From a virus (Duplodnaviria; Heunggongvirae; Uroviricota; Caudoviricetes), in the IMG/VR virus record IMGVR_UViG_3300042880_000509: a DNA stretch of 64,000 nt, one strand, 5' to 3'. The number at the start of each line of letters is the position of its first letter. The stretch's first letter is position 1. Shown in pieces: positions 5,475 through 48,305 of this stretch. A program made the translations under genes and the position numbers. Under the pieces are notes generated by a model, which was not told where the DNA came from, ran no database searches, and saw only the letters and a program-made list of their open reading frames with translations.

Positions 5475-6395
5475 CTACATCCTGTCTGAATACATTTCGT
5501 AAAACTTTTCTGGCATTTTTAAATGGTCAAGATTTATAGGTTCTGATTGTCCTTTATTTTCCAATCTTTTTATAAATTCACGGATTCTAGGATAACCGCT
5601 CCAGTTTTGCCATTTTGAAATTATTTTTACATTACTAGGTATTGATTCATACGTTTGTTTTGTTGTTGGGTCAATAAGTCCAACAAAGTCAAAATCATCT
5701 TTAATATGTTTCCAAGCTTGTGTTCCTCCAGCAGAAAAACCACTTACAGATTTTATCTTATAATCATTTATTCCATTTTTAGTTAAAACATTTTTTAAAG
5801 TATCCAATGAATTTTCAAAATTACTATAAACTACATTTCTATCCGAAAAATATTTATCACCACCATTATTTTTCATCCATTTTGCACCATAAGTAGAGCT
5901 AGGATAACCGCCCCAAATAACAGTAATATCATCCGAATCGGGATCGTTCATTTCTATAATATATGTTCCACCATTTATTGTTTTACTTTCTTTTTTTGTT
6001 TCTTGTTTTTTTGGTTCTGATTTTTTATTTTTTTCTTCAGTATCTTTTTCTTCTGTTTTTTTTGAGAGTATTGATTTTAATTTTTCAATATCTTCAGTAT
6101 TCATTGTTCCGGTAACTTCTAGTCCTTCTTCTTCTTGGAATTTTTTTACATTTTTTTCTGTTTCATTTCCGTATTTACCATCAATACCAAATTTACCAAA
6201 ACTATAACCTAATTTATCAAGACCGGCTTGAATTGCAGCAACACCTTTAGTAAATGAGTAATTATTCATTCCTTTTCTATGGATTTCTCCACCGTCAATA
6301 ATTTCATCTAAATCATTTATGTAATCTTCAAATGATTTATTTTCAAGTAATCTTATCAATCTAGAAGTTTGACTTTCAGTTAGTATTATTTTCAT
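5475..6395 (-). CDS. Peptidoglycan-binding domain plus serine hydrolase (alpha/beta, G-F-S-A-G nucleophile elbow) with shared leader
   Basis: PG_binding_1-like GLDKLGYSFGKFGIDGKYGNETEKNVKKFQEEEGLEVTG. Lys/Glu-rich linker. C-terminal domain with GFSAGG (GxSxG). N-terminus MKIILTESQTSRLIRLLE. Confidence 0.65.
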   Translation of the reverse strand: MKIILTESQTSRLIRLLENKSFEDYINDLDEIIDGGEIHRKGMNNYSFTKGVAAIQAGLDKLGYSFGKFGIDGKYGNETEKNVKKFQEEEGLEVTGTMNTEDIEKLKSILSKKTEEKDTEEKNKKSEPKKQETKKESKTINGGTYIIEMNDPDSDDITVIWGGYPSSTYGAKWMKNNGGDKYFSDRNVVYSNFENSLDTLKNVLTKNGINDYKIKSVSGFSAGGTQAWKHIKDDFDFVGLIDPTTKQTYESIPSNVKIISKWQNWSGYPRIREFIKRLENKGQSEPINLDHLKMPEKFYEMYSDRM

Positions 6396-6397
6396 AG

Positions 6398-7936
6398 TTA
6401 TGGTTGCATTATTGTTGAAACATATTCATATGTTTCTTTTGGTAATTTATCTTTAAGGTCTTTAAATGATGTCTTGTTTTTTAATGCGTCAAAATAAACT
6501 TGTTTACCTGACTTTGGTGGGTATTGATACCATGCTCCACTATTATATGCGGCAATAGCAAGATCTAATCTTCCTGGGAATCTTCTAACATTTTCTGACA
6601 TTAGTTTTACATAAGCAGGTAAAGCGTCTTCAACCTTACAAGGATCACCTTTACCATATGAAGGCCAAGTTGTTGGCATAAATTGTGCGATACCTCTTGC
6701 TCCGGCTGTAGATGTATTTTTACAACTTATAACAGATGGTGAAAAAGCAGATTCGGCATATAATTGTCTCATGGCATATTTTATTGGGATTCCACCACTT
6801 TCAACCTCTGATTTAAATTTATTAAAATTAACGCCTTGTATATTTTTAAATTGTTCTTCTAAGTTTGATGGTATACTTCTTATTTTCACACCTGGATTTG
6901 TTATAACAAAAGATGTATTTTCTTCTGAACCACCTGACCCTTTTTTAACATCTTCAATTTGTCTACCAGAATATGTTTTAAATATCTTTTGGGTTAATTT
7001 ATCTTGGGTTTTTAAATCAAAAATTCCACTTTCGTTTAATCCATTATTTTTTTGGAATTTAGTAATTGCAACTTTAGTATTTCCATCAAGAATCCCATTA
7101 ATTTCTATTGAGTTATCTTTTGTTACGATAAACAATATTACTTGCATCATTCTTATTTTTTTGTCAGAACTATTTTGGTCAACAACTTCATTAGTTTTTA
7201 AAAATTCAAAGTATCTTTCAAAAAACTTTTTAAACTTTTCTTTTTTATCGTCATTAGTATTACCAGTTGTTTGGGTTTGGTTTGTCTTTTTTGTTTCTTT
7301 GATATAAGTCTCAACATGATCTTTAATTGTTTTGTGGTTTGATGGTCCTATGTGTATTCCATCTCCTGCCGCCCAATTACCATCACCACTTACCGTTGGT
7401 ATTATAATAGCATTTTTAATTTGTGAAGAAAGATCTTTTTGTAATTGGATCATTCTTTCTCTTCCTTTATACATACAATTTTGATCACAAAGGACTCTAC
7501 CATCTGGATATTTAGTTGGTTTTAAATTCTTATCTGTCATAACAGAACCCGCTTCATATCCTAAAAAAACATAAGCCTGACCACCTTGTTCATTAACAAC
7601 ATCTACCATTTTTTGGATGTTTGTTACGGCATTTGATAAATTGGTTCCTACCCAAAAAGCATCATTTGTTCCGCCGTATATGAATACTTTATCGTATTTT
7701 TTTTCTTTTAGTTTTGGTAACATATTACTCAACATCCAGTCTGTTTTTTTTCCTCCTTCAACAACATGAGTAACATTCCAGTCTGGGTGTGCTTTTGATA
7801 ACAAATAATTCCAGGTTTTTCCTCCGGTACTTAAACTGTCGCCAACAAACATGACATTTTCTTTAACTCTATCGTCATTTTCAGTTATTAAATTAACAAG
7901 AAATTTGAATTGGTTTTCAGAGACAAGTATTTTCAT
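6398..7936 (-). CDS. Three-domain cell-wall enzyme: SGNH/GDSL hydrolase, peptidoglycan-binding domain and SLT lytic transglycosylase, with shared leader
   Basis: FVGDSLS (GDS motif) and GGTND (SGNH block III). PG_binding_1-like VAITKFQKNNGLNESG. C-terminal ES...GARGIAQFMPTTW...AAYNSG (SLT family 1). N-terminus MKILVSENQFKFLVNLITE. Confidence 0.75.
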   Translation of the reverse strand: MKILVSENQFKFLVNLITENDDRVKENVMFVGDSLSTGGKTWNYLLSKAHPDWNVTHVVEGGKKTDWMLSNMLPKLKEKKYDKVFIYGGTNDAFWVGTNLSNAVTNIQKMVDVVNEQGGQAYVFLGYEAGSVMTDKNLKPTKYPDGRVLCDQNCMYKGRERMIQLQKDLSSQIKNAIIIPTVSGDGNWAAGDGIHIGPSNHKTIKDHVETYIKETKKTNQTQTTGNTNDDKKEKFKKFFERYFEFLKTNEVVDQNSSDKKIRMMQVILFIVTKDNSIEINGILDGNTKVAITKFQKNNGLNESGIFDLKTQDKLTQKIFKTYSGRQIEDVKKGSGGSEENTSFVITNPGVKIRSIPSNLEEQFKNIQGVNFNKFKSEVESGGIPIKYAMRQLYAESAFSPSVISCKNTSTAGARGIAQFMPTTWPSYGKGDPCKVEDALPAYVKLMSENVRRFPGRLDLAIAAYNSGAWYQYPPKSGKQVYFDALKNKTSFKDLKDKLPKETYEYVSTIMQP

Positions 7937-8183: not shown

Positions 8184-9034
8184 AGGTTGTTAAAATTTCC
8201 TTTTTTGATTTTTTTATCGTCCAAAATAAAACATTTGTTTTCAACATCAATTTTATAACTTTTGTTTGGAAATGAAATATAATCACCGGTTGTAATATCA
8301 ACCAACATAATGTTTTCAACCTTCATACCAAGATAATTCTTTGGTAGTGGTGTGTTTAATATTAATTTTCCATCTTCTTCTGACATACCAGTTAATTCCT
8401 TTACTTGGAAACTCTTTCCGTTAATCTCCAAATCAATTCCGTGATCTCTATCTTGTTTAGATCCTGGAGGAAAATATTTGATATCGTATTTAGAGTTTTT
8501 TAATTTGTCAATAACATATTTTTCAGTGATACTTCCTTTATTGTAGGTATTCATATTAGCCCTAATAAGTTCTTTTAAAATAGGACCTTCATTTAATAAC
8601 CTTTCTTTATTATCAACTAACCATTTATAAAAATCTTTTGGTGTTTCACCTTTCTTTTCTTTTTTGAATATGTTTAGCAATCTATCTTTAACAAATTTGT
8701 GACCACCAAAATAATTTAAAATTGACCAACTTGTTAGTTCGTTAAGTGGATGTATGTCAATAATACCGCGTTTACTTTTATCTTCGTTCCAATCCAAATT
8801 ATCTTTATAAATTTCAAACAATAATTTATTTAAAAATTTAGCAAACCTACTATTATTTTGGATAAATTCAATATTTAAATTTCCTGGGTTGTTATCTTCT
8901 GAATCCACAATATTAATATAACCTTCTAATGATTTATCATTATTATTTTGATTAAAGTCAATTTCCATTTGATTTTCTGTTAGTCCCATCAAACTCAAAT
9001 TTCTTTTTATTTCGTTAATTATTGTTTTTTCCAT
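8180..9034 (-). CDS. Hypothetical protein (284 aa)
   Basis: Long ORF in coding-like sequence. Start overlaps the upstream gene stop (ATGA), suggesting translational coupling with the paralog array. Confidence 0.55.
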   Translation of the reverse strand: MEKTIINEIKRNLSLMGLTENQMEIDFNQNNNDKSLEGYINIVDSEDNNPGNLNIEFIQNNSRFAKFLNKLLFEIYKDNLDWNEDKSKRGIIDIHPLNELTSWSILNYFGGHKFVKDRLLNIFKKEKKGETPKDFYKWLVDNKERLLNEGPILKELIRANMNTYNKGSITEKYVIDKLKNSKYDIKYFPPGSKQDRDHGIDLEINGKSFQVKELTGMSEEDGKLILNTPLPKNYLGMKVENIMLVDITTGDYISFPNKSYKIDVENKCFILDDKKIKKGNFNNL

Positions 9035-9705
9035 TATTCAAAATTCTCCTCTTTTAATATTATTGGTTCACCTTTTGTAGTATTTCTTTCAACCCATACA
9101 TGATATAAATAACCATTATTATTTTGATTGTATAATTTTAATACTCCGTTACCACCGGCGTCTTCATCCCAACTATCGGTTTCTAATACTTCACTAATCA
9201 TCATTATTACGTCATAAGCAAAAAATCTGGTGTCTTGACGATTTAATTCCTTATTATTATATGTTATTGTACAGTCAAAATTATTTTCGTGTCCAGAATA
9301 ATCAATTATAAGTTCTTCAAGTTCCATATCTTCCATAAATTTTGATAGTGAATAATAGTCTCTTAATTGTCTCCAATCAAATTTCCTATTATCTTTTGAT
9401 TCTGTATATGTAAAATATTTTGGTATTAACATTATTTCTCTTTTTTTTGGATAAACACTAAAATCAACCCAGTATGCTGGTTCGTGTTTATCTGTTCTAT
9501 TATAAAGTTCTTCACCATAATTGGTTAGTATTGAATGAAAAAACTTTTTAAATATATCAATAATTGTAAATCTATGAGTTCTTTCTGTTACCCAATTTTC
9601 AGGAAAATGCTCAATATCACCAATCAACATATCAATATTTGTTCCTATTGGCCCAATTGGATTAAGGTATGCCATTAGTGCTCTAAATGTTCTTTTTTTT
9701 AACAT
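9034..9705 (-). CDS. Tandem-paralog family member 1 (223 aa), most divergent copy
   Basis: N-terminus MLKKRTFRALMAYLNPIG. Shares the YPKK..I and W-x-DAGGNG motifs with the neighbouring copies. Confidence 0.6.
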   Translation of the reverse strand: MLKKRTFRALMAYLNPIGPIGTNIDMLIGDIEHFPENWVTERTHRFTIIDIFKKFFHSILTNYGEELYNRTDKHEPAYWVDFSVYPKKREIMLIPKYFTYTESKDNRKFDWRQLRDYYSLSKFMEDMELEELIIDYSGHENNFDCTITYNNKELNRQDTRFFAYDVIMMISEVLETDSWDEDAGGNGVLKLYNQNNNGYLYHVWVERNTTKGEPIILKEENFE

Positions 9706-9710
9706 ATTAT

Positions 9711-10388
9711 TTAAGGTAAAGAATCTTCTGTTATTTCAATATCAATTTCATTTGAATCATCGTCCTCAGTATTCCACTCGTGATTAACACTTATTTCATC
9801 TTTTGTAAATACAATATTTCCTTGTGATCCTTCATTTATTTCCCAGCCCCCATATTCTTCGAGTAAATCATAGCAAATATGTTCAATATCTTCATCTATT
9901 TGTCCATTCTTATTTTTAGATGTATAATCACTTTCAATGTATCCGGAATCACCACCACCATTATAACTTATAGTCATATCTTCAATTCCTTCGTGTTCTA
10001 AGAATTTTCTTACTTCCATAAATGTAGAATACATACCATCATCTTCTTCATAATCATCAATATATACTTCATATCCACTATCTGATGTGCCGTATGATGT
10101 AAACCTAACTTGGTTAAAAACAATTTTATTTTCAAACGGATAAATCTCTCCATCAACATAAAAATAATCACTTGCACTTTGTACAGAGCCAGGACCTTCA
10201 TCGTATAATTCATTGGTATATAGTTCAAGAATTGTTTGGAGATGTGATTCAAAATTTGATGTAATATCAACACCGTAATAAATATTTATATCTTCAATAT
10301 GAGTTTCACTTATTGTAATTTCAAAAGGTATTGATTCCTTTTTAAACCCTTTCAGGTATGCCATTAACATTTTAAATTTTTTTTTCAT
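9711..10388 (-). CDS. Tandem-paralog family member 2 (225 aa)
   Basis: MKKKFKMLMAYLKGFKK. Contains IYPFENKIVF, NGGGDSGYIES, GGWEINEGSQGNIVF and HEWNTED. Confidence 0.65.
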   Translation of the reverse strand: MKKKFKMLMAYLKGFKKESIPFEITISETHIEDINIYYGVDITSNFESHLQTILELYTNELYDEGPGSVQSASDYFYVDGEIYPFENKIVFNQVRFTSYGTSDSGYEVYIDDYEEDDGMYSTFMEVRKFLEHEGIEDMTISYNGGGDSGYIESDYTSKNKNGQIDEDIEHICYDLLEEYGGWEINEGSQGNIVFTKDEISVNHEWNTEDDDSNEIDIEITEDSLP

Positions 10389-11086
10389 TATTGGTAAGTA
10401 TCTAAATTTATTTCTAATCTCATATCAGTTGGTTCGTAATCTTGATCTTTGGTAAAACCTTTTACAAAAATACTGTCACCCCAAACTATAATGTTTCCTT
10501 CAGCACCGGCTTCCATATTCCAAAACCTACTATTAGTTATTTTTTGCATAAGTTCATTAGTAATCATCCATAAATCTTCACTCATTTGATTGGTAATTTT
10601 AATTAGTTGTCCATCAAGTTCAAGATCGTAAATATGACCATCATCCCAACGACCATAAAAATCAAATTCAAATTTTACTAGGTCTTCATTATCTTCATAA
10701 AATGATAATATTCTTTCTTTACTTTCTTTTGACATATCACCATAATATGTATCATATTTAAATCTTTCTCTATTTTCAACTTTACATGAAGATGTAAAAA
10801 TAATTTTATTTTCAAATGGATGTATTTCAATATTCAAATACCAATATTCGTCAATATCTAAATCAAGATAGTTATAAAAATCATCCATGTGATTTTTAAT
10901 TAATTCTTCTATGAATTTTTCAAAATGTGATGGTAATAATAGTCTTTTTGTATTTCTTTGTTCATTTGTCACATCAAATCTACCCCAATCTTCAATGTGA
11001 GTCCTATCCATTACAATAGAAGTATCAACAAGATGTCCTTTGAGTCCTCTTAAAAAAGCAAAAAATAATTTTAATCTTTGTTTCAT
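10388..11086 (-). CDS. Tandem-paralog family member 3 (232 aa)
   Basis: MKQRLKLFFAFLRGLKG. Contains IHPFENKIIF and WNMEAGAEGNIIVWG. Shares 1 nt with the neighbouring gene. Confidence 0.65.
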   Translation of the reverse strand: MKQRLKLFFAFLRGLKGHLVDTSIVMDRTHIEDWGRFDVTNEQRNTKRLLLPSHFEKFIEELIKNHMDDFYNYLDLDIDEYWYLNIEIHPFENKIIFTSSCKVENRERFKYDTYYGDMSKESKERILSFYEDNEDLVKFEFDFYGRWDDGHIYDLELDGQLIKITNQMSEDLWMITNELMQKITNSRFWNMEAGAEGNIIVWGDSIFVKGFTKDQDYEPTDMRLEINLDTYQ

Positions 11087-11772
11087 TCTTCTATATTGTC
11101 CGGTGTTACATTTATATTCATTTCTGTCATCTCATGATCTTTGGATTTTGTAAAAAATTCCATTCTTATTGATTTATCTTTCTCAACGTAAATTGTACCG
11201 TAACTACCAGGTCCATCAGTCCACCATCTGTCAAGAATATTTGTCATTAATTGATCTGTTAACTCAATATAATTTATATCGTCATTTATAAAAATATAAA
11301 AATCAAGGTTAACATCTATTTGATCATAATTACCATTAAATTCAAAATTAAATTTATCTTTATCTTTTAGATCTTCATTAAATATTGTATCAACTAAATC
11401 AAGAGTAGTTGTTGATAATTGTGTATTTTTTCTATTTAAACTAAATGTTTGTTGGCCATCATATTCGCTTACTATCTCACATTCGCTTTGAAAATTTATT
11501 CTATTTTGTTTTGGGTAAACATATACAAGTAATGTCCACCATTCACTTTCATCATAATCGTTTTCTCTGTGAAACTTTTGCATATATGATTTTAATATGT
11601 CCTCAAATGTCTCTTGTAATTTTGTTGGTAATTCTATTTCTTTACCTTCTTTGGTTGTAAATTTTAAATCCCAACTTTCCATATGGTTATAGTCAAAATT
11701 GATATATGTATCCAATACATCTGTTTTAAATGCTCTAAAATATGCAAGTAATAATTTTAATTTTTGTTTCAT
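11083..11772 (-). CDS. Tandem-paralog family member 4 (229 aa)
   Basis: MKQKLKLLLAYFRAFKT. Contains VYPKQNRINF and WWTDGPGSYGTIYVE. 4-nt overlap with the neighbouring gene. Confidence 0.65.
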   Translation of the reverse strand: MKQKLKLLLAYFRAFKTDVLDTYINFDYNHMESWDLKFTTKEGKEIELPTKLQETFEDILKSYMQKFHRENDYDESEWWTLLVYVYPKQNRINFQSECEIVSEYDGQQTFSLNRKNTQLSTTTLDLVDTIFNEDLKDKDKFNFEFNGNYDQIDVNLDFYIFINDDINYIELTDQLMTNILDRWWTDGPGSYGTIYVEKDKSIRMEFFTKSKDHEMTEMNINVTPDNIEE

Positions 11773-12437
11773 TCTTCCAGGTCATCTTCTTTAATTTCAA
11801 TTGTATCATGACAATCAACCATTTCTCTCATATTCCATTCGTGAGAAATTACAATTTCCAAATTATTATTTAATTCAATTGTTCCGACAGATCCGTCATC
11901 TATCTCCCAACCACCGTAAGCGTTTTCTAGATTATCATAAAGTGTGTTCCAAATTAATTTATTGTCATCACTATCTGAATGCCAGGTAATGTTTGAACTT
12001 TCACCATCAACTGTTATTGAATCGATATCTCCGCTGTCTCCACCACCACTATATCTTGCTTCAATTATTTCAACACCAGTTGTTTTAAAATAATCTTCTA
12101 ATTCTGGGTTTTTTAATTTTCTTTCATAAGTTTCAGCTTGTGATGTATATTCTTCTGCTTTCATTGAAACCACAATTTTTTTATCTTTCGGGTATATGTC
12201 GGCAATTACATTATAGTAATCGCTTTCACTCCAGCAATCTATATCATTTATTTGATCTTCTATTGACTCTAAAATATCAGTAATAAGGTTAACAATATTT
12301 TTAGGTAGTGATTGTATTTCAACACCAAAAGGCCATTGCCATTCAGTATTACCATCATAATTGTTCCATATAACAGATATTTTGTCCTTTTTGAGTTTAG
12401 ACAAAAAAGACATTAACATTCTAAATTTTCTTTTCAT
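11769..12437 (-). CDS. Tandem-paralog family member 5 (222 aa)
   Basis: MKRKFRMLMSFLSKLKK. Contains IYPKDKKIVV, YSGGGDSGDIDS, GGWEIDDGSVGTIEL and SHEWNMRE. 4-nt overlap with the neighbouring gene. Confidence 0.65.
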   Translation of the reverse strand: MKRKFRMLMSFLSKLKKDKISVIWNNYDGNTEWQWPFGVEIQSLPKNIVNLITDILESIEDQINDIDCWSESDYYNVIADIYPKDKKIVVSMKAEEYTSQAETYERKLKNPELEDYFKTTGVEIIEARYSGGGDSGDIDSITVDGESSNITWHSDSDDNKLIWNTLYDNLENAYGGWEIDDGSVGTIELNNNLEIVISHEWNMREMVDCHDTIEIKEDDLEE

Positions 12438-18275: not shown

Positions 18276-19874
18276 ATGATACATTCACGTAAACTAATAT
18301 TATTTTCATCAATATCTTTGATGTTCATATTCCTATTAACTAAAACATTAATTTTATTAAATTTAGTTAGTCCTAGCGACATCACAAGGGTTATTGAAAT
18401 GTTTTGTTTTTTAACATTTTCACCATTATTTTATTTTTTAATGAAAAAACAAAATGTGGACTTGAAAAGTGGTTTATTAAAACAAATTAAAGATAGTGAA
18501 GAATTTATTGATTCCGCAACAATTGTTTCTGTTGCCGATAAGTATGGTAAAATCACATACGTTAATAAAAAATTTGAAGAAGTTTCTGGGTGGTCTTTAG
18601 ATGAGGTTAAAGGTATGGATCATAGTGTTGTTAACTCTGGCTTGCAACCTGATGGGTATTGGGGAAAGATGTATGAGACTGTAATGAAAGGTGAGATATG
18701 GAATGATGTTGTTACAAATAAAGGAAAGTCGGGTGAACTATATTATGTTGATACATACATCAAAGCAAAATTTGATAAGAAGGGTAAGTTAGATGGGTTT
18801 TCATCCATCAGACAAGATGTTACAGAACTTAAAAGAAAAGAAATGGAAATCCGTAATAGAATGAACGCAATAAATAAATCTAATGCTGTTATTGAGTTTG
18901 ATTTAGAAGGAAACATCATTTTTGCTAATGAATTGTTTTTAAATACTATGGGTTATTCTTCGCCGGATGAAGTAATTGGGAAACACCACAGAATTTTTAT
19001 TGATGAAGATCACTTAAAAAGTGAGGAATATTCTATTTTTTGGAAAAAACTAAATGATGGTATATTATTTACTGGTGAAATTACTAGAGTCAAAAAAGAC
19101 GGGTCTTTAGTTTATTTACAAGCAACTTACAACCCAATTATTGGTGTGGATGGTAAGATTTATCGTGTTATGAAAATAGCAACAGACGTAACCAATTCTT
19201 ATGAACAAAAGAAAGAGATAGAAAAGAAAAATACCTATTTAGAACACGCTGCTAAAATATTAAGACACGATATGCACTCTGGTATTAACACATATATGCC
19301 AAGAGGGTTAAGTTCTTTAGAAAGAAGGTTAAGTTCTGAAGATATTACATCGTTAAAGATTGAAGCTCCAATTAGAATGATTAAAGAAGGATTAAAACAT
19401 TCTCAAAAAGTATATAAAGGAGTTTATGAATTTACCAATCTAGTTAAAAAAGATGTTGTTTTAAATAAAACTGAATGTAATTTAAAATCAATTTTATCTG
19501 ATTACCTATCATCAACAGCATATTTAAGTCAAGTAATTATTGAAGACTTACCTACAATAGAAGTAAACGAAGCGTTATTTTGTACCGCAGTTGATAATTT
19601 AATTAGAAACGGTTTAAAATATAACGATTCAGATACCAAATTTGTTAAAATTTATTCCGATGAGAATAATATTTACATACAAGATAACGGTAGAGGAATC
19701 ACACAAGAAGATTTTGATCACTTATCTAAACCATACACAAGAAAAGAAGGGCAAAAAGAATCTGGTACTGGTTTAGGTTTAAATATTTGCGTTGCTATTT
19801 TAGAAGAGCACGGGTTTAATATTACTTGTGAGAAAAATGAAATAGGAACAAAAATGAAAATAAAAATAAAATAA
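18276..19874 (+). CDS. Membrane-anchored sensor histidine kinase with two PAS domains
   Basis: Two N-terminal hydrophobic helices. PAS 1: ATIVSVADKYGKITYVNKKFEEVSGWS...DGFSSIRQDVTE. PAS 2: AVIEFDLEGNIIFANELF...DGKIYRVMKIATDVT. H-box region AAKILRHDMHSG. HATPase_c N-box NLIRNGLKYN, G1 DNGRGI, G2 GTGLGLNI. Confidence 0.8.
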   Translation: MIHSRKLILFSSISLMFIFLLTKTLILLNLVSPSDITRVIEMFCFLTFSPLFYFLMKKQNVDLKSGLLKQIKDSEEFIDSATIVSVADKYGKITYVNKKFEEVSGWSLDEVKGMDHSVVNSGLQPDGYWGKMYETVMKGEIWNDVVTNKGKSGELYYVDTYIKAKFDKKGKLDGFSSIRQDVTELKRKEMEIRNRMNAINKSNAVIEFDLEGNIIFANELFLNTMGYSSPDEVIGKHHRIFIDEDHLKSEEYSIFWKKLNDGILFTGEITRVKKDGSLVYLQATYNPIIGVDGKIYRVMKIATDVTNSYEQKKEIEKKNTYLEHAAKILRHDMHSGINTYMPRGLSSLERRLSSEDITSLKIEAPIRMIKEGLKHSQKVYKGVYEFTNLVKKDVVLNKTECNLKSILSDYLSSTAYLSQVIIEDLPTIEVNEALFCTAVDNLIRNGLKYNDSDTKFVKIYSDENNIYIQDNGRGITQEDFDHLSKPYTRKEGQKESGTGLGLNICVAILEEHGFNITCEKNEIGTKMKIKIK

Positions 19875-20329: not shown

Positions 20330-21000
20330 TAAGGTTAGATAAAAATAGTGAAACAGATTTAATTAAACTCTTTGAGTCCAAGAACGTTGGGCTTGAGGGG
20401 AATGTTATTAAATTAATTGAGTCTGATAACGACGAATTTAAAACCTATCTAACTAAATGTACTGATAAAGATAAAGATTCCAGACGTAAACGATTAGAGA
20501 TAACAAAAAAAATACAATTACAAAACAATGAATTATCTGATCTAAACGAACAGAATCAAAAGATGATGGAGGATCTTCAGTCCACACTAAAAGAAGCTGA
20601 AGAACAAAAAGTAAAAATTGAGGCTCAGAATGGTGAGTTAGTCGCTTGGAGAGAAGAGAACGAAAAGATACAACAGGAATTACAAAAGGAGATGATTAAA
20701 TCTGAAAGTGCAAGAATACGTGCCGAAGAAGCAAAGACAAACGCAATCAACGATCTTGACATCCTCCAAAAGAAAAACCAAACGGAATTAATATCAACAA
20801 TTGTAAGGGTTGCCCTTTATATTATTGTTGGTGTTGGTATTGTTACTACCGGAGTATATGTATTCACTATTGTTATGGGTAAAGACACACAAGTTATTAG
20901 TGCCGCTTGGTCAAACATATTTGGTATACTTCTAACAAACGCATTCTCAATTGTGGGAACCATTATGGGTATTAAATACGCAACAGAAAATAAACAATAA
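20326..21000 (+). CDS. Coiled-coil protein with two C-terminal transmembrane helices; possible lysis regulator/holin-like component
   Basis: About 150 aa of heptad-like E/K/Q-rich sequence, then IVRVALYIIVGVGIVTTGVYVFTIVMG and WSNIFGILLTNAFSIVGTIMGI. 4-nt overlap with the REC gene. Lies immediately upstream of the endolysin. Confidence 0.55.
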   Translation: MIRLDKNSETDLIKLFESKNVGLEGNVIKLIESDNDEFKTYLTKCTDKDKDSRRKRLEITKKIQLQNNELSDLNEQNQKMMEDLQSTLKEAEEQKVKIEAQNGELVAWREENEKIQQELQKEMIKSESARIRAEEAKTNAINDLDILQKKNQTELISTIVRVALYIIVGVGIVTTGVYVFTIVMGKDTQVISAAWSNIFGILLTNAFSIVGTIMGIKYATENKQ

Positions 21001-21010
21001 AATAAAAACT

Positions 21011-21835
21011 ATGTTATTAAAAGTAGGATCGAAAGGAGACGATGTAAAAAAACTTCAAGAAAAATTAGGATTAACGGCTGATGGTTCTTTTGGACCTAAA
21101 ACTGAAACGGTGGTAAAAGAATGGCAAACTAAAAACGGATTAACCGCTGATGGTATTGTTGGTGATGGTACTTGGGCTAAAATGTTCGGAACAACTCAAG
21201 TAGTTAAAGAAGATGTTGTGATTACACCAGTTGTAGGACTAAACGTTGAGAAACTAAAAGGTCACATTCCTGATGTTGTTATTGCACAGATAGCGGAAAC
21301 CGCAAAGAAATTTAACATTACAACAAATCTTAGACTTGCTCACTTTTTATCACAATGTGGACATGAGTCAGGAGGATTTAAAGCGGTATCAGAAAATTTA
21401 AACTATTCGGCTGACGGATTAAAAAGAACGTTTGGTAAATACTTTCCTGGTAACTTGGCAGAATCATATGCTAAACAACCAGAAAAGATTGCATCAAGAG
21501 TTTATGCTAACCGTATGAGTAACGGAGATGAAGCGTCAAAAGAGGGTTATAAATTTAGAGGGAGAGGTTATATTCAGTTGACAGGCAAAGGAAACTACAC
21601 AAGTTTTACTAAATTTATTGGTGAAGATTGTGTTGCAAATCCTGATCTTGTTGCTACTAAATACCCATTGGCATCTGCCGCATTTTTCTTTGATTCAAAT
21701 AAACTTTGGTCAATATGTGATAAAGGTGCTGATGATGCTGCGGTAACTGCGGTAACAAAACGAGTAAATGGGGGAACCATAGGACTTGCTGATAGAATCA
21801 AACACTTTAAAGAGTATTATAATTTGTTAAAATAA
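21011..21835 (+). CDS. Endolysin: N-terminal peptidoglycan-binding domain plus GH19 glycoside hydrolase domain
   Basis: PG_binding_1 motif KLQEKLGLTADGSFGPKTETVVKEWQTKNGLTADGIVG. GH19 motifs FLSQCGHESGGF and YKFRGRGYIQLTGKGNY. Start chosen at 21011 (MLLKVGSKGDD). Confidence 0.85.
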   Translation: MLLKVGSKGDDVKKLQEKLGLTADGSFGPKTETVVKEWQTKNGLTADGIVGDGTWAKMFGTTQVVKEDVVITPVVGLNVEKLKGHIPDVVIAQIAETAKKFNITTNLRLAHFLSQCGHESGGFKAVSENLNYSADGLKRTFGKYFPGNLAESYAKQPEKIASRVYANRMSNGDEASKEGYKFRGRGYIQLTGKGNYTSFTKFIGEDCVANPDLVATKYPLASAAFFFDSNKLWSICDKGADDAAVTAVTKRVNGGTIGLADRIKHFKEYYNLLK

Positions 21836-26318: not shown

Positions 26319-27185
26319 CTATTGACATACCCAATTCCAAGTTGGGAAGTTTTTATTTCTTATCCTATCTCTTACACTACTGTCTGGCATATTAAAATAT
26401 TTTGCAGCTTCAACCGCAGAATTAAATAACAAACCATCAATCATACATTTTTTAGCTTGTGGTTTTGGTGGTTCTATCAATGCGTATTTTTCTTTTCTTT
26501 TTTCATTCGCTAATTTTGATATTTCTTTACCACCAATTCTACCTTTTTTCCATCCCTCTTCAATAATTCTTGGATCATCAGGTAATGTCCTTAAATGTTC
26601 TCCTTTATCATTATAAAACCACAACTTATTTTTGTGTGCGATTGACATTTTTTCTTTTGTTTTGTCAGTGTGTCTGTGATCAGAACTTTTTTTTCTTAAT
26701 ATTTTTAGTGTCTCATCTGTATGTTTTTTTCCGTAGAATGAATTTTTTTCACCGCCATATTTACCAATTCTTGATAAACTAATTTTGTTTCTTTGTTCTT
26801 CTGTAAGTTTTTTACCAAAATTTGGATTATTAGTCCCTCTTATACTTTTAGAATAATCTTCCTTTATTAAATCATATAACCTTGAATTTATTTTATGTCT
26901 TTCTTGGTATTCTCTCTTAACATTACACATATTCCATAATGCAAATCTTAATTTTGTGTTTTTAGGGTAAATTTCACATAAAAGTAAATGACAGATGAAA
27001 TGTTCTCTAGCGGTTAAAACAACTAAATTCCAAACATCATTTGACCCCCCAAGACATTTTGGTATGATGTGATGTGTTTCTGTGTATCCAGTGATAGTTC
27101 TATTTTTACCTCTTTCAACAATACTATTATAAATTTTCAAATAATCCATCGGTTTCCGTATATTATATAAATATATGGAAACCAA
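26319..27185 (-). CDS. Freestanding HNH homing endonuclease with NUMOD-like DNA-binding repeats
   Basis: HNH motif ETHHIIPKCLGGSNDVWNLVVLTAREHFICH. Repeated GKK(L/H)T(E/D)E..-K(I/M)S modules (NPNFGKKLTEEQRNKISLS, NSFYGKKHTDETLKILRKK). Likely start at the internal MDYLKIYNS. Confidence 0.8.
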   Translation of the reverse strand: MVSIYLYNIRKPMDYLKIYNSIVERGKNRTITGYTETHHIIPKCLGGSNDVWNLVVLTAREHFICHLLLCEIYPKNTKLRFALWNMCNVKREYQERHKINSRLYDLIKEDYSKSIRGTNNPNFGKKLTEEQRNKISLSRIGKYGGEKNSFYGKKHTDETLKILRKKSSDHRHTDKTKEKMSIAHKNKLWFYNDKGEHLRTLPDDPRIIEEGWKKGRIGGKEISKLANEKRKEKYALIEPPKPQAKKCMIDGLLFNSAVEAAKYFNMPDSSVRDRIRNKNFPTWNWVCQ

Positions 27186-27193
27186 CGAAAAAC

Positions 27194-28024
27194 CTAAATT
27201 GCCAACTCTAATTTTGAATTTATTTTAGTTATACCGTCAATACCGGTAATCTCAAAATCATCAATTGTATAGTCGTAGAAGTTTTTATTTTCCTTTAAAA
27301 TTAACTTTGGTTGTGTGTCTAATGGTTCCTTGTTTAATAGTTCTGAAACACCATCAAAATGTCTATCATATATATGAAGGTTTTGGACTAAATGACAGAA
27401 CTTACCAACTTTATAACCACAATGTCCCGCAACCATCATTTGTAAAGCCAAATATTGCACTTTATTAATATAACCCGCAACCAAATAATCGTTTGATCTT
27501 TGGACCAACGTCATATCCAAAACCTTATCTTTATCAACTTTTCTAACCGAACAGAGTATTTCATAAGCACAAGGAAATAAACCATTTGTTTCTTCTAAAT
27601 CAACATATTGATACATACTAATAATATGCCTTCTACCAAATGGATCATTAACTAATCCATCAAGTAGTTTATTCATCAAATCATATCTTTTGATTGTTGC
27701 ACCATATCTCTGACCAATACTATTATCTCCAATATTCCATTCTTCCCACCAGTTAATACCCATCTCACGAGCAACATCAAGTGATGAAGTTTGTTTTTGG
27801 TATATCCAAAGTATTTCTTTAATTCCGGTTTTAATTGCAGTATTCCTTAATGTTGTAATTGGAAACTCACCTTTTAAAATATCATATTCTTCAAATACCT
27901 GTGTGATAAACTTTGAGTGTGATGGTGTCCCATCCTCGTATTTTGGTCTTGGGTTTTCATCCCAAGAACCTTCTGACATAATCTTTGATAAGTTCTGAAT
28001 ATAATATTTGTCGGCTTTACTCAT
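27194..28024 (-). CDS. thyA: Thymidylate synthase (ThyA; long T4-td-like form)
   Basis: FPITTLRNTAIKTGIKEILWIYQ. RRHIISMYQ...FPCAYE (catalytic Cys). QRSNDYLVAGYINKVQYLALQMMVAGHCGYKVGKFCHLVQNLHIYDRH matches the ThyA C-terminal block. Confidence 0.9.
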   Translation of the reverse strand: MSKADKYYIQNLSKIMSEGSWDENPRPKYEDGTPSHSKFITQVFEEYDILKGEFPITTLRNTAIKTGIKEILWIYQKQTSSLDVAREMGINWWEEWNIGDNSIGQRYGATIKRYDLMNKLLDGLVNDPFGRRHIISMYQYVDLEETNGLFPCAYEILCSVRKVDKDKVLDMTLVQRSNDYLVAGYINKVQYLALQMMVAGHCGYKVGKFCHLVQNLHIYDRHFDGVSELLNKEPLDTQPKLILKENKNFYDYTIDDFEITGIDGITKINSKLELAI

Positions 28025-31036: not shown

Positions 31037-32305
31037 TTATAAAAACAACTTTTTTGATTGTTTTTCTCTGTGAAATTTAATCGCAAAACGGTGAACTTCT
31101 TCCTGGATTTTACCAAACAAAGTAAAGTTTATATCATCTTTTATGTTAAACTCGGATCCATCAATTTTATGTATGATTGATGATTTGTGATTTGAATCTT
31201 TTGAAATTGAAATAAGGTCAACTTGGTCTAAAATTCCAAGATTTTCAAATACTTTTCTGGCAACACCTAATTGACCTTTACCACCATCAATGATTACAAG
31301 ATCCGGAAGTTTTTGTTTTTCATCAAGTAATCTTTTGAATCTACGGTTTAATACCTCATCAAATGATTGGTAGTCATCAACACCGGTAAAACTTCTAATG
31401 ATATATTTACGGTACTCTGATTTATCCGGAGTTTCATTTTTAAATCTAACTGATGCTGCAACATTTGAATCGCCCTGGTTGTGTGAGTTATCAAATGCTT
31501 CAATTGATACTGGAATGTTTTTAAGACCCAGAACATTTTTAATATCAAAAGCTTTTTTGTTATATTTCTGTAATCTTATAACATTCAACTTACTATCAAT
31601 ACTTTCCAAACTTGTAAGTTTTGATAATAAGTCTTGTGCTTTTTCAAACTCCAGATTGTCAGAGTAATACTTCATAGACTTCTTCAACTTTGTTTTAAGA
31701 CTGGAAATATCAAGTGATAGAACTTTTTTCACATCACGAATAATCTCATTGTAATAAAACTTTTTGATGTTATTCACGCAAGGAGCATTACATCTTCCCA
31801 AGTGAAATTCCAAACAGGTCTTGAACTTTTCTTTTGTGATATTTTCTTCCGTTAAATCATAAGAACAACTACGAAGTTCAAAGACATCGTGAATAAGATT
31901 ATAGATCTCACGACATAACATTCCGGAAGTAAAATCCAAACTTACTCTGTCGTCTTGTTTGTCTCTTACAATCTCTAGTTTTGGAAATTCTTCTTCTGTA
32001 AAGCACAAAGACCATTTTCTGGTCTTATCATCTTTTCCTTTGATGTTGAACTTTGGTTTGTATAACTTGATTAGTTCTTCTTCTAGGATAATTGCTTCTT
32101 GTTCTGATGATGTAATCTTGAACTCAACATCAACAATGTTTTCAACAAGGGTTTTTGTTTTGCCTGTATGATTTTTTTGAAAATAAGATGAAACCCTTTT
32201 TGGTAAAAACTTGGACATACCAACATAGATGATTTGTTCTTTGTCGTTTTTGAACAAATAACAACCTGCATTTTTTGGTATGTCTTTAAGTTTTTCTAAT
32301 ATCAT
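31037..32305 (-). CDS. UvrC-like nuclease (GIY-YIG domain plus UvrC RNase-H-like endonuclease domain), lacking the C-terminal HhH region
   Basis: GIY-YIG motif GCYLFKN...IIYVGMSKFLPKRVSSYF. UvrC-homology region LIKLYKPKFN. Cys-rich motif RSCSY...GRCNAPCV. C-terminal IEAFDNSH...YRKY...DDYQSFDEV...PDLVIIDGGKGQL. Only 422 aa compared with about 610 for bacterial UvrC. Confidence 0.8.
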   Translation of the reverse strand: MILEKLKDIPKNAGCYLFKNDKEQIIYVGMSKFLPKRVSSYFQKNHTGKTKTLVENIVDVEFKITSSEQEAIILEEELIKLYKPKFNIKGKDDKTRKWSLCFTEEEFPKLEIVRDKQDDRVSLDFTSGMLCREIYNLIHDVFELRSCSYDLTEENITKEKFKTCLEFHLGRCNAPCVNNIKKFYYNEIIRDVKKVLSLDISSLKTKLKKSMKYYSDNLEFEKAQDLLSKLTSLESIDSKLNVIRLQKYNKKAFDIKNVLGLKNIPVSIEAFDNSHNQGDSNVAASVRFKNETPDKSEYRKYIIRSFTGVDDYQSFDEVLNRRFKRLLDEKQKLPDLVIIDGGKGQLGVARKVFENLGILDQVDLISISKDSNHKSSIIHKIDGSEFNIKDDINFTLFGKIQEEVHRFAIKFHREKQSKKLFL

Positions 32306-44885: not shown

Positions 44886-44944
44886 TCATCTTTAAAACCT
44901 TGTTTTTCAGTTGTTTTTAAATGGGTGTTGATATATATTAGTTA
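44886..44944 (-). repeat. 59-nt intergenic repeat, copy 1 (begins exactly at the stop codon of the methyltransferase gene)
   Basis: TCATCTTTAAAACCTTGTTTTTCAGTTGTTTTTAAATGGGTGTTGATATATATTAGTTA on the plus strand. The copy at 50801..50859 differs at one position. Confidence 0.7.
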
Positions 44945-45736
44945 GTTGCAATACTGCGAAGCCCTCCGAACAGCAACATCGTAATATTGTTTTTCCTTTT
45001 CTATTCCAATTGATTTGCGATTTAATTTGATACAAGCCAAATTGGTAGTTCCTGAACCCATTGTATTATCCAATACCATATCACCTTCGTTTGTGTATGA
45101 TTTCACAAGCATTTCAAGTAAAGCAAGCGGCTTCTGAGTTGGATGTATCGTTCCATCAAGCTTTGTTTTTTGTTTATCTGAAGCAAAAACTTGTACACTT
45201 CTTGGGTATCTGTCAGTTTCTCCACCACCACTTACATCTTGCTTTACTTTCCCATACACTTCTGTTTTATTACAAACTTCGGCTTTCTTGGTATAGGTAT
45301 TTACAGGCTTATGTCCTTCTGTTTTTTGTGGATTAAACTTTGGGGTTTTATTGTAAAATACTAAAATATTTTCGTGTGCTTTCATAGGCATTTTCTTTGC
45401 ATTAAAATATCCTGTTGCTTGTGTTTTCTCCCAAATCCATTCGTATTTTAACCATTCCAAATTTGAGCAACCAAGCACTTTATCAAATGGTGTTTGTGCA
45501 AATAAAACTACCACTCCATTATCTTTTAGTATTCTTTTGTATTGCTCCCAAAGTTTATTTAAGTCTAAAACAGAATCCCATTTGCAGTTAGTAGTTCCAT
45601 AAGGCAAATCGCAAATAATAGCATCAATTGATTTATCATCAATAAAAGGAAAAACATCAAAGCAATCAGCTTTCACAAAAGTACTGCCACTAACACGTGT
45701 TTGGCAAAATGGCTGTTCAGTAATTCTATCAATCAT
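44942..45736 (-). CDS. DNA methyltransferase (N6-adenine/N4-cytosine family, beta-class order)
   Basis: Motif IV DAIICDLPYGT (DPPY-like) is N-terminal. The C-terminal AdoMet motif VLDNTMGSGTT places it in PF01555-like architecture. Confidence 0.8.
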   Translation of the reverse strand: MIDRITEQPFCQTRVSGSTFVKADCFDVFPFIDDKSIDAIICDLPYGTTNCKWDSVLDLNKLWEQYKRILKDNGVVVLFAQTPFDKVLGCSNLEWLKYEWIWEKTQATGYFNAKKMPMKAHENILVFYNKTPKFNPQKTEGHKPVNTYTKKAEVCNKTEVYGKVKQDVSGGGETDRYPRSVQVFASDKQKTKLDGTIHPTQKPLALLEMLVKSYTNEGDMVLDNTMGSGTTNLACIKLNRKSIGIEKEKQYYDVAVRRASQYCN

Positions 45737-45919: not shown

Positions 45920-45958
45920 ATAAAAAAAAGTGACTCAACCAAGTTAATGGGAGTCACC
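45920..45958 (-). terminator. Intrinsic terminator overlapping the last codons of the RNA ligase gene (GTGACTC...GAGTCAC plus T8)
   Basis: 7-bp stem with a 14-nt loop. The minus strand continues with TTTTTTTT. Confidence 0.65.
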
Positions 45959-47077
45959 TACGTTATTTTTTTCACCATATATCAAGTAATCAGGATTTAT
46001 TACCTTACTTACTTTTCTACGGTCACCAGTTATAGATTTAACAACAACACCTTCGTGTGGTACTTTGGTGCCTTCTATGTTATTATTGAAGACGAATTTA
46101 TCTTGTTCTTCTTTATTCCAATTACCCTGGTATAACAATTCAACTTGTGGTAATTGTAAACAATCAAAATGTACGGTTTCATTTATGTAAGGCTGGTATA
46201 CACCATCAACTTCAACATCAAACCCGGCGAATTTAACATCAGTTAAACCGTACTCATAGTTTTTTTGTATACCAGCTCCATATATCTCACCATATATTAC
46301 AACACCTTCAGTTAGGTCAGATGGTTCGTAAGTATCTTTTACGTGATCCCACAATTTACCTCTTATGTCGTATGTGCTACCAACAGTTTTCCATACATCG
46401 GTGTCATAGAAGCCTTGAGAATCGGATCCTTTCTCAACATTATGTGAGCCGTAAACATATTCAAATGCAACCCATTGATTTCCGAAAAACATTTTAACAC
46501 GGTCCCATAGAGAAAGTTTTTTCTTTCTAACTATTCCGTAACGAGCATTGGTTCCGTGAAGTTTACGAGTTATAACAACTTCGTCTTCTTCACTAAACAT
46601 ATCCGGAACATTCTTCTGGTTTGGAAATTTGTAATAAACATGGAAGTTAGGGTTTTGATGGTATTTTACTTTACGTCCACCAACACTTAACTGAACGGTT
46701 TTAACTGGTGGTTCGTATTTAGTTATACCAAGTATTCCCATCATATCATCGCCTTCGTTTACGTTATTCTCCAAAGATTTTGGAGCTAAGTACTTGAATG
46801 GTATTAACAAACATTCAGAGTAAACACCACGAAGTTTTACGGTTCTAACTCTTTGCCCTTTACGAAGGTAATTAGTTACACCCATTAAATCAGATAAATC
46901 CTGTGGTATTACAGCATCGGTAGTTGCTACAACAACCTTATCACCAACCTGGTATTCTCCTTTTTTAGTTATGGCGTTCCATCCACCAACAGTTACTAAT
47001 TCTATATTATCAGCACCCGGTATTTCAGACACGGATCCTATTTTTCCTACGTATGCAACACTATTTAAATTTTTCAT
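45944..47077 (-). CDS. RNA ligase (Rnl2-like nucleotidyltransferase) with N-terminal tRNA-binding OB-fold (Myf/Trbp111-like) domain
   Basis: N-terminus AYVGKIGSVSEIPGADNIELVTVGGW...KGEYQVGDKVVVA matches the tRNA_bind fold. Motif I KLHGTN (Rnl2 KIHGTN). EGVVIYGE, GFDV and a C-terminal PHEGVVVKS...RRKVSKV (motifs IV/V). Confidence 0.6.
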   Translation of the reverse strand: MKNLNSVAYVGKIGSVSEIPGADNIELVTVGGWNAITKKGEYQVGDKVVVATTDAVIPQDLSDLMGVTNYLRKGQRVRTVKLRGVYSECLLIPFKYLAPKSLENNVNEGDDMMGILGITKYEPPVKTVQLSVGGRKVKYHQNPNFHVYYKFPNQKNVPDMFSEEDEVVITRKLHGTNARYGIVRKKKLSLWDRVKMFFGNQWVAFEYVYGSHNVEKGSDSQGFYDTDVWKTVGSTYDIRGKLWDHVKDTYEPSDLTEGVVIYGEIYGAGIQKNYEYGLTDVKFAGFDVEVDGVYQPYINETVHFDCLQLPQVELLYQGNWNKEEQDKFVFNNNIEGTKVPHEGVVVKSITGDRRKVSKVINPDYLIYGEKNNVGDSH

Positions 47078-47495: not shown

Positions 47496-48305
47496 TTAAT
47501 TATCACTATCTTCTTCAAAATTTATCAATAAATCAAACTCTTTTTCTTTTCTTTTTTCTTCCACCCTCTTTAAAGAAATATTAAAATAATCCATACTATT
47601 CTCAATTCCGATAAAGTTTCGGTTGGTATTTATACAAGCAATTCCTGTTGTACAACTACCAAATGTATTATCTAAAATAGTATCACCATCATTACTGTAT
47701 GAGTTTATCAACCATTCAATCAATTCAACAGGTTTTTGTGTGCTATGTAATTGGTCTTGTCTTCTCCATTTTTGTTGAAAAAATTGTACAGTTGAAGGAT
47801 ACCTAAATCCATCATTAATAGTTTCACTTTCAGAAATTACACCAAGTTTATGATTGTTTGGTTTATCTCCTTTATTCGCTTTTCGCTTTCTATAATATGG
47901 TTTGCCTTCTTCAAGTTGTGGATTATAAACAACTTTACCTTTACCAAATATTAAAATGTTTTCGTGTTTTTGAACAGGTCTATATTTAGCGGTAAATGAA
48001 CTACCACTTTTAGATTTGTGCCAAATTATTTCATACTTATACATTTTTTCATTCGATAATGCTAATTTGTAAGCAAACAAACCTGTTCCAAATAAAGCAA
48101 TAGCACCATCATCTTTTATAATCCTTTTATATTGTTCCCAAAGTTGTTCAAATGGAATTACAATATCCCAATAGTTTTTAGTTGAACCATAAGGTAAATC
48201 ACAGCAAATAAAGTCAATACTTTTATCAGGTATCAATTTCATTTGTTCTATTGTATCTCCGTATCTTAAATCTATTGTCATAATTTTATTCAACGTCGTC
48301 TTCAA
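47496..48305 (-). CDS. DNA methyltransferase, second copy of the same family
   Basis: DFICCDLPYGST and ILDNTFGSCTT. About 35-40% identical by eye to 44942..45736 over conserved blocks. Confidence 0.8.
   Translation of the reverse strand: MKTTLNKIMTIDLRYGDTIEQMKLIPDKSIDFICCDLPYGSTKNYWDIVIPFEQLWEQYKRIIKDDGAIALFGTGLFAYKLALSNEKMYKYEIIWHKSKSGSSFTAKYRPVQKHENILIFGKGKVVYNPQLEEGKPYYRKRKANKGDKPNNHKLGVISESETINDGFRYPSTVQFFQQKWRRQDQLHSTQKPVELIEWLINSYSNDGDTILDNTFGSCTTGIACINTNRNFIGIENSMDYFNISLKRVEEKRKEKEFDLLINFEEDSDN

Follow-up and report, generated by a model that had tools for sequence, protein, structure and literature searches.

The 64,000-nucleotide stretch of Caudoviricetes DNA considered here (IMG/VR record IMGVR_UViG_3300042880_000509; hereafter, the window) carries, at 31037..32305 on the minus strand, a complete open reading frame (ORF) of 422 amino acids (aa), with an ATG start and a TAA stop codon, which encodes a reduced homolog of UvrC, subunit C of the UvrABC excinuclease. 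We refer to this protein as mini-UvrC. The gene is separated by gaps of 12 and 23 nucleotides from the upstream and downstream ORFs, respectively, both on the same strand, and no Shine-Dalgarno motif was found upstream of it. An initial annotation, made from the sequence alone, had described a UvrC-like protein containing both nuclease domains and lacking the tandem helix-hairpin-helix, (HhH)2, tail. The assignment was confirmed by an ORF check, Pfam, and the NCBIfam uvrC equivalog model TIGR00194 (354.5 bits, above the cut-off of 285.45), and the domain content was borne out by Pfam, TIGR00194, and the match to Protein Data Bank (PDB) entry 3c65. All motifs quoted in that annotation were located, namely, GCYLF (aa 14–18), IIYVGMS (25–31), RSCSY (145–149), GRCNAPCV (170–177), IEAFDNSH (268–275), and PDLVIIDGGKGQL (334–346).

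An AlphaFold2 model built from the family alignment (predicted local distance difference test score, pLDDT, 84.4; predicted template modeling score, 0.77) has the layout published for the N-terminal half of UvrC, with a GIY-YIG domain, a three-strand beta motif, a Cys motif, and a four-helix bundle, the latter being fused straight onto the catalytic RNase H domain (RNase H2). The GIY-YIG nuclease domain responsible for 3′ incision occupies 32021..32305 on the minus strand, as do all parts of the gene listed below (aa 1–95; PF01541 at aa 13–87, E = 3e-11), and matches PDB entry 1yd6 both in sequence (E = 1e-23) and in a Foldseek comparison (target-normalized TM-score of 0.75). It is followed by a three-stranded beta-sheet linker motif (31901..32020; aa 96–135; predicted strands 98–102, 110–114, and 122–125), which is also present in the published full-length UvrC model (PMC10085695), and by a Cys-rich, putatively iron-sulfur (Fe-S), motif together with the first helices of the four-helix bundle (31721..31900; aa 136–195), a region of the family with a precomputed assignment to PF27096 (UvrC_M). 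The presumed UvrB-binding half of the bundle is a UVR-type helical hairpin (31529..31720; aa 196–259) with helices predicted at 201–216, 220–239, and 241–259 (pLDDT ~89–96), although the Pfam UVR model, at 15.6 bits, stays under its cut-off of 21.5. At a junction around aa ~260–265 (31511..31528), marked by an alignment gap at the site of the RNase H1 domain (PF22920) of canonical UvrC, the bundle runs directly into the catalytic RNase-H-like domain for 5′ incision (31076..31528; aa 260–410; PF08459, UvrC_RNaseH_dom, at aa 257–409, E = 7e-47), for which matches were obtained with PDB entries 3c65 (E = 5e-32) and 2nrt (E = 6e-18) in sequence searches and with 8b0q, 2nrt, and 3c65 in Foldseek. 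A basic C-terminal tail, FHRxKxxKKLxx, conserved in the relatives, and the stop codon complete the gene (31037..31075).

The absence of (HhH)2 is, however, only part of the reduction; the initial annotation overlooked a larger internal loss, that of the ~120-aa RNase H1 domain. Loss of (HhH)2 alone would leave about 550 aa and thus does not explain a length of 422 aa. Compared with Escherichia coli UvrC (b1913, 610 aa), mini-UvrC is also shorter by ~120 aa in the region that separates the UVR motif from the catalytic RNase H domain, and the missing segment corresponds to PF22920, the “UvrC Ribonuclease H-like domain,” which a Pfam control places at residues 251–368 of the E. coli protein. Pfam detects this domain in E. 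coli UvrC and in the canonical relative P0124 but not in mini-UvrC. In HMMER searches, the alignments of canonical UvrCs of ~600 aa are split in two, the first part covering the N-terminal ~250 residues of the query and the second its C-terminal part; in P0124, for instance, query residues 249–419 align with target residues 371–539. At the other end, mini-UvrC terminates at the equivalent of residue 171 of the 226-residue C-terminal chain of Bacillus stearothermophilus UvrC (3c65), directly before (HhH)2, where canonical UvrC runs on into a linker and (HhH)2, and the Pfam scan of the protein gave no HhH match. A split gene, or provision of either domain by a neighbor, was considered and rejected: Pfam gave no relevant match for the adjacent ORFs (108 aa, downstream; 76 aa, upstream), no flanking gene co-varies with UvrC, and custom hidden Markov models (HMMs) of RNase H1 and (HhH)2 found nothing in the window or in 610 kb of sequence from related loci (best E = 0.098 and 1.7, respectively, against 1e-55 for an RNase H2 HMM serving as the positive control). 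According to Seck et al. 2023 (PMC10085695), RNase H1 is a central, catalytically inactive platform that occludes the GIY-YIG site, (HhH)2 is folded over the catalytic RNase H2 site in the full-length model, and the two modules together produce a closed, auto-inhibited UvrC.

Despite this reduction, mini-UvrC is a genuine UvrC homolog under purifying selection. A search of a large protein collection yielded 7,960 matches at E ≤ 1e-10, of which the best 120 are 66–93% identical to the query and nearly all 422–430 aa long, except for three fragments of 393–395 aa; altogether, 142 distinct full-length relatives of 421–430 aa share a common stop point. The gene is intact at 40 of 42 related loci, ending 1–5 residues from the same point. 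One of the remaining two copies is cut by the contig end, and the other, in locus L016 (78% identity), is interrupted at codon 116 by one in-frame TAA (L016:6346-6348), the result of either an error in sequencing or a very recent loss of function, the rest of the gene being intact. The median pairwise ratio of nonsynonymous to synonymous substitution rates (dN/dS) for 27 distinct sequences is 0.092 and stays below 0.25 in all segments, rising from 0.048 in GIY-YIG through 0.068 in the Cys region and 0.096 in RNase H2 to 0.225 in UVR. A pseudogene, which the initial annotation had named as an outcome that would refute its reading, is therefore not supported. All 142 members retain the GIY-YIG residues Y16, Y27, K32, R37 (aligned with E. 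coli R42), Y41, E75, and N87; the four cysteines C147, C164, C172, and C176 (C154, C166, C174, and C178 in E. coli) of the motif for a putative Fe-S cluster; and the RNase H residues D272, D311, D340, and H405, which map to E. coli D399, probably D438, D466, and H538, respectively.

That the gene is phage-encoded, as initially proposed, is supported by the viral contigs that carry it, by synteny, and by PHROG matches. We identified mini-UvrC at 50–96% identity on 47 viral contigs in IMG/VR, some of them 317–321 kb long, and read these related contigs over about 20 kb around the gene. The order Band_7, UvrC, ThyA is shared by the window and some of the IMG/VR contigs, and a relative with 88% identity and the same synteny resides on a 290-kb contig. 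The window (~29% GC) consists of tightly packed small ORFs, mostly on one strand, with PHROG and Pfam matches to lysins, an RNA ligase, a homing endonuclease, DNA methyltransferases, thymidylate synthase, and an SPFH protein, and none of the ~50 ORFs scanned is a cellular housekeeping gene. Mini-UvrC itself matches a PHROG of unknown function. The clade was seen only on viral or metagenomic contigs. One genome from each of 185,579 species contained no close relative (best match, 33% identity); GenBank phages contained none either, all matches being <40% identical and located in unverified or contaminated records; a megablast search of GenBank phages with 24 kb of the window returned no match; and BFVD offered no structural counterpart at E ≤ 1e-3, with matches to single domains only. 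In a library clustered at 50% identity, the clade comprises two clusters, after which the score falls from 585 to 271 bits, and in a neighbor-joining (NJ) tree it is monophyletic with a long stem. Phage UvrC-like proteins, which the initial annotation called unusual, are indeed so among described viruses (GenBank, BFVD, and the literature) but are common in one uncultured phage lineage, with 142 distinct sequences, and the same reduced architecture is that of the chromosomal uvrC of some bacteria.

The host of this lineage is likely to belong to Bacteroidota, judging from the near absence of Shine-Dalgarno motifs and from the affinity of the SPFH protein. The Shine-Dalgarno core precedes only 1 of 74 genes in the window, the upstream regions being A/T-rich, and the SPFH protein has by far its best match in Flavobacterium phage FL-1 (46% identity over the full length), followed by crAss-like phages and Prevotella Lak phages. 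There are no tRNA genes in the window.

The four-helix bundle through which cellular UvrC binds UvrB is retained in mini-UvrC, where the same role is presumed. The two hairpin helices (201–216 and 220–239) are modeled with pLDDT of ~90–96, and the UVR turn, E219-[F/Y]220-E221-x-A223, is invariant in all 142 members; F220 corresponds to F213 of Deinococcus radiodurans UvrC (DrUvrC) and to F652 of UvrB, a key residue of the published interface (PMC10085695). Experiments on the D. radiodurans protein bear on how such a truncated UvrC might behave. DrUvrC deprived of (HhH)2 keeps UvrAB-dependent dual incision, with the 3′ cut intact, and DrUvrC fragments without the UvrB-binding region are inactive (PMC10085695). 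The proposal of the initial annotation that a UvrC without HhH could act independently of UvrB is therefore disfavored, given that DrUvrC-Δ(HhH)2 needs UvrAB and that both the bundle and the UVR turn are retained in mini-UvrC. Like mini-UvrC, DrUvrC-Δ(HhH)2 lacks (HhH)2 and keeps both nucleases and the UvrB-binding bundle (PMC10085695), which by analogy makes it the best experimental proxy for the phage protein, although it keeps RNase H1 and mini-UvrC does not.

Neither UvrA nor UvrB could be assigned to the phage. No ORF in the window reaches 540 aa, which excludes UvrA and UvrB from these 64 kb. A UvrB probe consisting of two ultra-conserved peptide motifs, built from six diverse UvrBs, detected 51 loci among 2.9 million IMG/VR viral contigs, none of them on the 47 UvrC contigs, including those of 317–321 kb. 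Within the reach of this probe, we rejected a phage-encoded UvrB; the UvrBs of GenBank “phage” records are host or transduced DNA. Among 15 flanking genes, none remains with UvrC below ~70% UvrC identity. From the lack of partner genes, the lack of a co-occurring neighbor, and its own conservation, we conclude that mini-UvrC stands alone and is unusually well conserved within a lineage of diverse phages. Certain relatives have a translesion polymerase gene beside it. In L041, the most divergent member (50% UvrC identity to the window protein), a Y-family translesion polymerase of the UmuC/DinB type (IMS, IMS_C, and DUF4113 domains; L041:4765-5970, plus strand) lies 10 bp upstream of mini-UvrC, and in L007/L008 (89% UvrC identity), a Y-family polymerase 46% identical to the L041 copy (L007/L008:7892-9085, plus strand) is found ~620 bp downstream; no such polymerase was found in the 64-kb window. 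The juxtaposition of a Y-family polymerase and mini-UvrC in two divergent branches supports a role in damage repair. A patatin-like phospholipase (L041:10086-11045) and a protein with a poly(A) polymerase/CCA-adding enzyme head domain (L041:1518-2699) are also encoded near mini-UvrC in L041.

Reduced UvrCs are not confined to phages but are also encoded chromosomally by streamlined bacteria. Chromosomal mini-UvrCs without RNase H1 and HhH are encoded in an Endomicrobium metagenome-assembled genome (MAG) (MDR3306724.1; P0225, 433 aa) and in GCA_023247705.1 (P0233, 429 aa), and a protein of the same composition is found in Patescibacteria (L111:2334-3620, 428 aa). Midi-UvrCs, in which only RNase H1 is missing, occur in Patescibacteria (L110:7980-9545, 521 aa) and Chlamydiota (P0172, 479 aa). 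The contigs of P0225 and P0233 present ordinary cellular neighborhoods (murJ, mutS/mutL, lptE, secA), with murJ directly upstream of the reduced UvrC in both loci examined; the mini architecture, serving as chromosomal uvrC in such surroundings, is accordingly compatible with cellular life. The short bacterial forms are only 32–38% identical to phage mini-UvrC, no nearer to it than canonical UvrCs are, and in the NJ tree as well as by distances, the phage clade is no closer to bacterial mini-UvrCs than to canonical UvrCs. Unlike the phage proteins, most of the short bacterial forms have a canonical UVR with Arg, whereas L111 has no Pfam UVR match. We found no published account of reduced cellular UvrCs in Patescibacteria, Endomicrobium, or the other MAG. 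The Endomicrobium MAG and the other MAG account for the loci L050:10001-11290 and L051:10001-11302, whose chromosomal UvrCs lack RNase H1.

We favor, with moderate confidence, the view that mini-UvrC is a functional, streamlined UvrC of a large Bacteroidota-type phage, which works together with host UvrA and UvrB in damage repair. During infection, UV photoproducts and other lesions in the DNA of the phage and the host would be detected by host UvrA and UvrB, and UvrB would be loaded; host UvrB would then recruit mini-UvrC, which, by analogy with its relatives, would cut on both sides of the lesion. In E. coli, there are 10–20 UvrC molecules against ~2000 of UvrB per cell, and UvrC is not damage-inducible (PMC10085695). 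Since UvrC is scarce and non-inducible there, supply of UvrC by the phage could plausibly speed up repair of phage DNA: the phage gene would enlarge the pool of the scarce subunit, and the presumed benefit would lie in host-cell reactivation, enhanced by the phage, of a genome that is very large and exposed to UV. A phage translesion polymerase would complement UvrC-based repair in some relatives. With DrUvrC-Δ(HhH)2 as the nearest proxy, incision by mini-UvrC may likewise be dual and dependent on UvrA and UvrB, and the phage protein, long selected at a dN/dS of 0.09, may have compensated for the loss of its domains.

Several observations weigh against cooperation with host UvrB. A second residue of the published interface (PMC10085695) is R230 of E. 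coli UvrC, equivalent to R659 of UvrB. Of 127 canonical UvrCs, 92% have a basic residue at this position, whereas the 142 members of the phage family have Leu (121 members, 85%), His (14), or Lys (7) and never Arg. No segment of the protein is under weaker constraint than UVR, with its dN/dS of 0.225 and a Pfam score below the cut-off, and RNase H1, missing here, has been proposed to give extra contacts with UvrB (PMC10085695). DrUvrC without (HhH)2 is partly impaired in 5′ incision (PMC10085695). A two-motif probe would overlook a very divergent phage UvrB, the host is known by inference only, and the support for this particular protein comes from sequences and models.

The foremost alternative, which we regard as appreciably less probable, is that mini-UvrC is a deregulated, UvrB-independent structure-specific nuclease that cuts bubbles, flaps, and nicked or damaged DNA unaided, in the service of phage replication, recombination, or degradation of the host chromosome for nucleotides. 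Degradation of the host chromosome by a GIY-YIG enzyme is known from T4 endonuclease II. In favor of this alternative, both modules that occlude the nuclease sites in the published model (PMC10085695) are gone, the UVR is degenerate by the measures given above, and the gene is found among nucleotide-metabolism or early-type genes such as ThyA. With the interface Arg replaced, the UVR least constrained, and the RNase H1 contacts lost, it stays a live option. Yet the UVR turn is fully invariant and the bundle confidently folded; nuclease fragments of UvrC that cannot be recruited by UvrB give no incision (PMC10085695); and the ability to bind DNA autonomously is lost, not gained, with (HhH)2. 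Bacteria, moreover, tolerate this architecture in a chromosomal gene, which speaks against inherent toxicity, and the linkage to translesion polymerases indicates damage processing. For mere degradation of host DNA, two nuclease sites and an Fe-S motif under strict constraint would be unneeded.

A related conjecture, which we put forward tentatively and with about the same reserve, is that mini-UvrC has been unlocked: having shed both of the proposed closing modules and remodeled its UVR interface, it would be a constitutively open dual nuclease that either out-competes host UvrC for UvrB-DNA complexes or operates free of UvrB. If true, no earlier case would exist of a virus encoding a nuclease for nucleotide excision repair of the UvrABC type, and mini-UvrC would be a natural test of the published model of UvrC auto-inhibition. 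In lineages whose phages also encode the Y-family polymerase, the two would amount to a phage-run response to UV damage.

Less probable still is damage repair with a divergent or non-orthologous recognition partner encoded by the phage, that is, a self-contained phage excision-repair module. The Leu-for-Arg replacement in the UVR interface could represent adaptation to another partner, and genomes of up to 321 kb, with mostly genes of unknown function and surveyed here only around mini-UvrC, would offer room for one. However, no candidate was found among the genes read, the UvrB motif probe misses every UvrC-bearing contig, and the flanking genes do not persist with UvrC across the family. Finally, a functionless gene in decay, or a piece of host DNA placed in a viral contig by faulty assembly or binning, is effectively excluded: the host-derived uvrC and uvrB genes of GenBank “phage” records and the nonsense codon of L016 might be taken to point that way, but the latter is a single lesion in an otherwise intact gene, 142 distinct intact sequences evolve under a dN/dS of 0.09, the 47 viral contigs show the gene surrounded by arrays of phage-type genes, and the clade is monophyletic, separated from cellular UvrCs by the drop in score from 585 to 271 bits, and has no match above 33% in the genomes of 185,579 species.

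Host contamination was rejected on the same grounds, namely, viral context and absence from those genomes. Many GenBank “phage” records contain full-length host uvrC and uvrB; examples such as OR848985, OR846593, OR844990, CAKLQF020000005/7, and MT83xxxx are unverified multi-contig assemblies, and MF374379, phage DN1, carries a transduced bio-uvrB locus; such mislabeled records are a contamination trap when phage repair genes are counted. A component of a defense system was also considered, and PADLOC-DB gave no match at E ≤ 0.01 for mini-UvrC and its two neighbors.

Mini-UvrC was also compared with characterized proteins. With canonical UvrCs such as those of E. coli and D. radiodurans (PMC10085695), it shares the GIY-YIG domain, beta motif, four-Cys motif, bundle with UVR turn, and the D-D-H residues of RNase H2, at 32–41% identity; it differs from them by the lack of RNase H1 (~120 aa) and (HhH)2 (~55 aa), by Leu in place of the UVR interface Arg, and by the lack of a detectable UvrA or UvrB of its own. 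Cho, of the E. coli ydjQ type, is a natural UvrC derivative without (HhH)2 that acts on UvrB-DNA complexes. It lacks the whole C-terminal nuclease half, which mini-UvrC has, and assignment to this family (NF007833) was rejected because of that domain and because mini-UvrC scores 40 bits, far from the required 367; Cho is mentioned alongside UvrC in the D. radiodurans study (PMC10085695). A DEDD exonuclease-Cho fusion (PRK07883) was discarded as well, its best model reaching 146.5 bits against 495 over the UvrC-N-like part only, and no exonuclease domain being present. Homing endonucleases of the I-TevI/Seg type were rejected since mini-UvrC has no NUMOD or I-TevI domain in Pfam, unlike the homing endonuclease encoded at 26319-27185 of the same window, which has such modules. 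Stand-alone phage GIY-YIG proteins with UvrC/Cho-like annotation, such as ORF31 of Vibrio phage R16F and gp33 of Burkholderia phage AH2 (191 aa), are single-domain proteins without the Cys motif, UVR bundle, and RNase H nuclease.

Our literature searches brought up stand-alone GIY-YIG domains of phages but no two-nuclease UvrC from a phage or jumbo phage, and one metagenome survey gives a viral uvrC count of zero. What is already known is that the family is auto-annotated as UvrC, its members in the data of the Joint Genome Institute (JGI) being named “excinuclease ABC subunit C,” and that reduced architectures exist in cells. Among the major causes of phage death in sunlit water is UV damage, against which phages were believed to depend on host UvrABC (host-cell reactivation), photolyase, or enzymes of the T4 DenV/UvdE type. 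A conserved phage UvrC would mean that viruses also exploit the UvrABC pathway through its scarcest subunit. Beside the cellular mini forms, the clade represents a natural minimal UvrC, in which both nuclease sites are combined with an Fe-S motif and a bundle of the UvrB type, and because RNase H1 and (HhH)2 are both absent, the platform and auto-inhibition roles ascribed to them are directly testable in a 422-aa protein. For annotators, the implication is that “excinuclease ABC subunit C” on a viral contig is not invariably contamination.

Other genes of the window deserve brief mention. The I-TevI/NUMOD3-type homing endonuclease (26319-27185, minus strand) is located directly downstream of thymidylate synthase (27194-28024, minus strand), and this pairing is repeated in the 290-kb relative. 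Two paralogous DNA methyltransferases (phrog_67) at 44942-45736 and 47496-48305, both on the minus strand, are separated by the RNA ligase (45944-47077). A 532-aa sensor histidine kinase (18276-19874, plus strand) combines a hydrophobic N-terminus with two PAS domains and HATPase_c; a role in blue-light sensing through light-oxygen-voltage (LOV) domains was rejected, the flavin-binding cysteine of the NCRFLQ type being absent from both PAS domains. Three ORFs with PHROG matches of the lysin/peptidoglycan hydrolase type (5475-6395, 6398-7936, and 20951-21835) fall within 16 kb. Finally, five consecutive ORFs of ~222–232 aa (9034-12437, minus strand) are divergent tandem paralogs with 21–34% identity, two of which have a C-terminal match to Pfam DUF6878.

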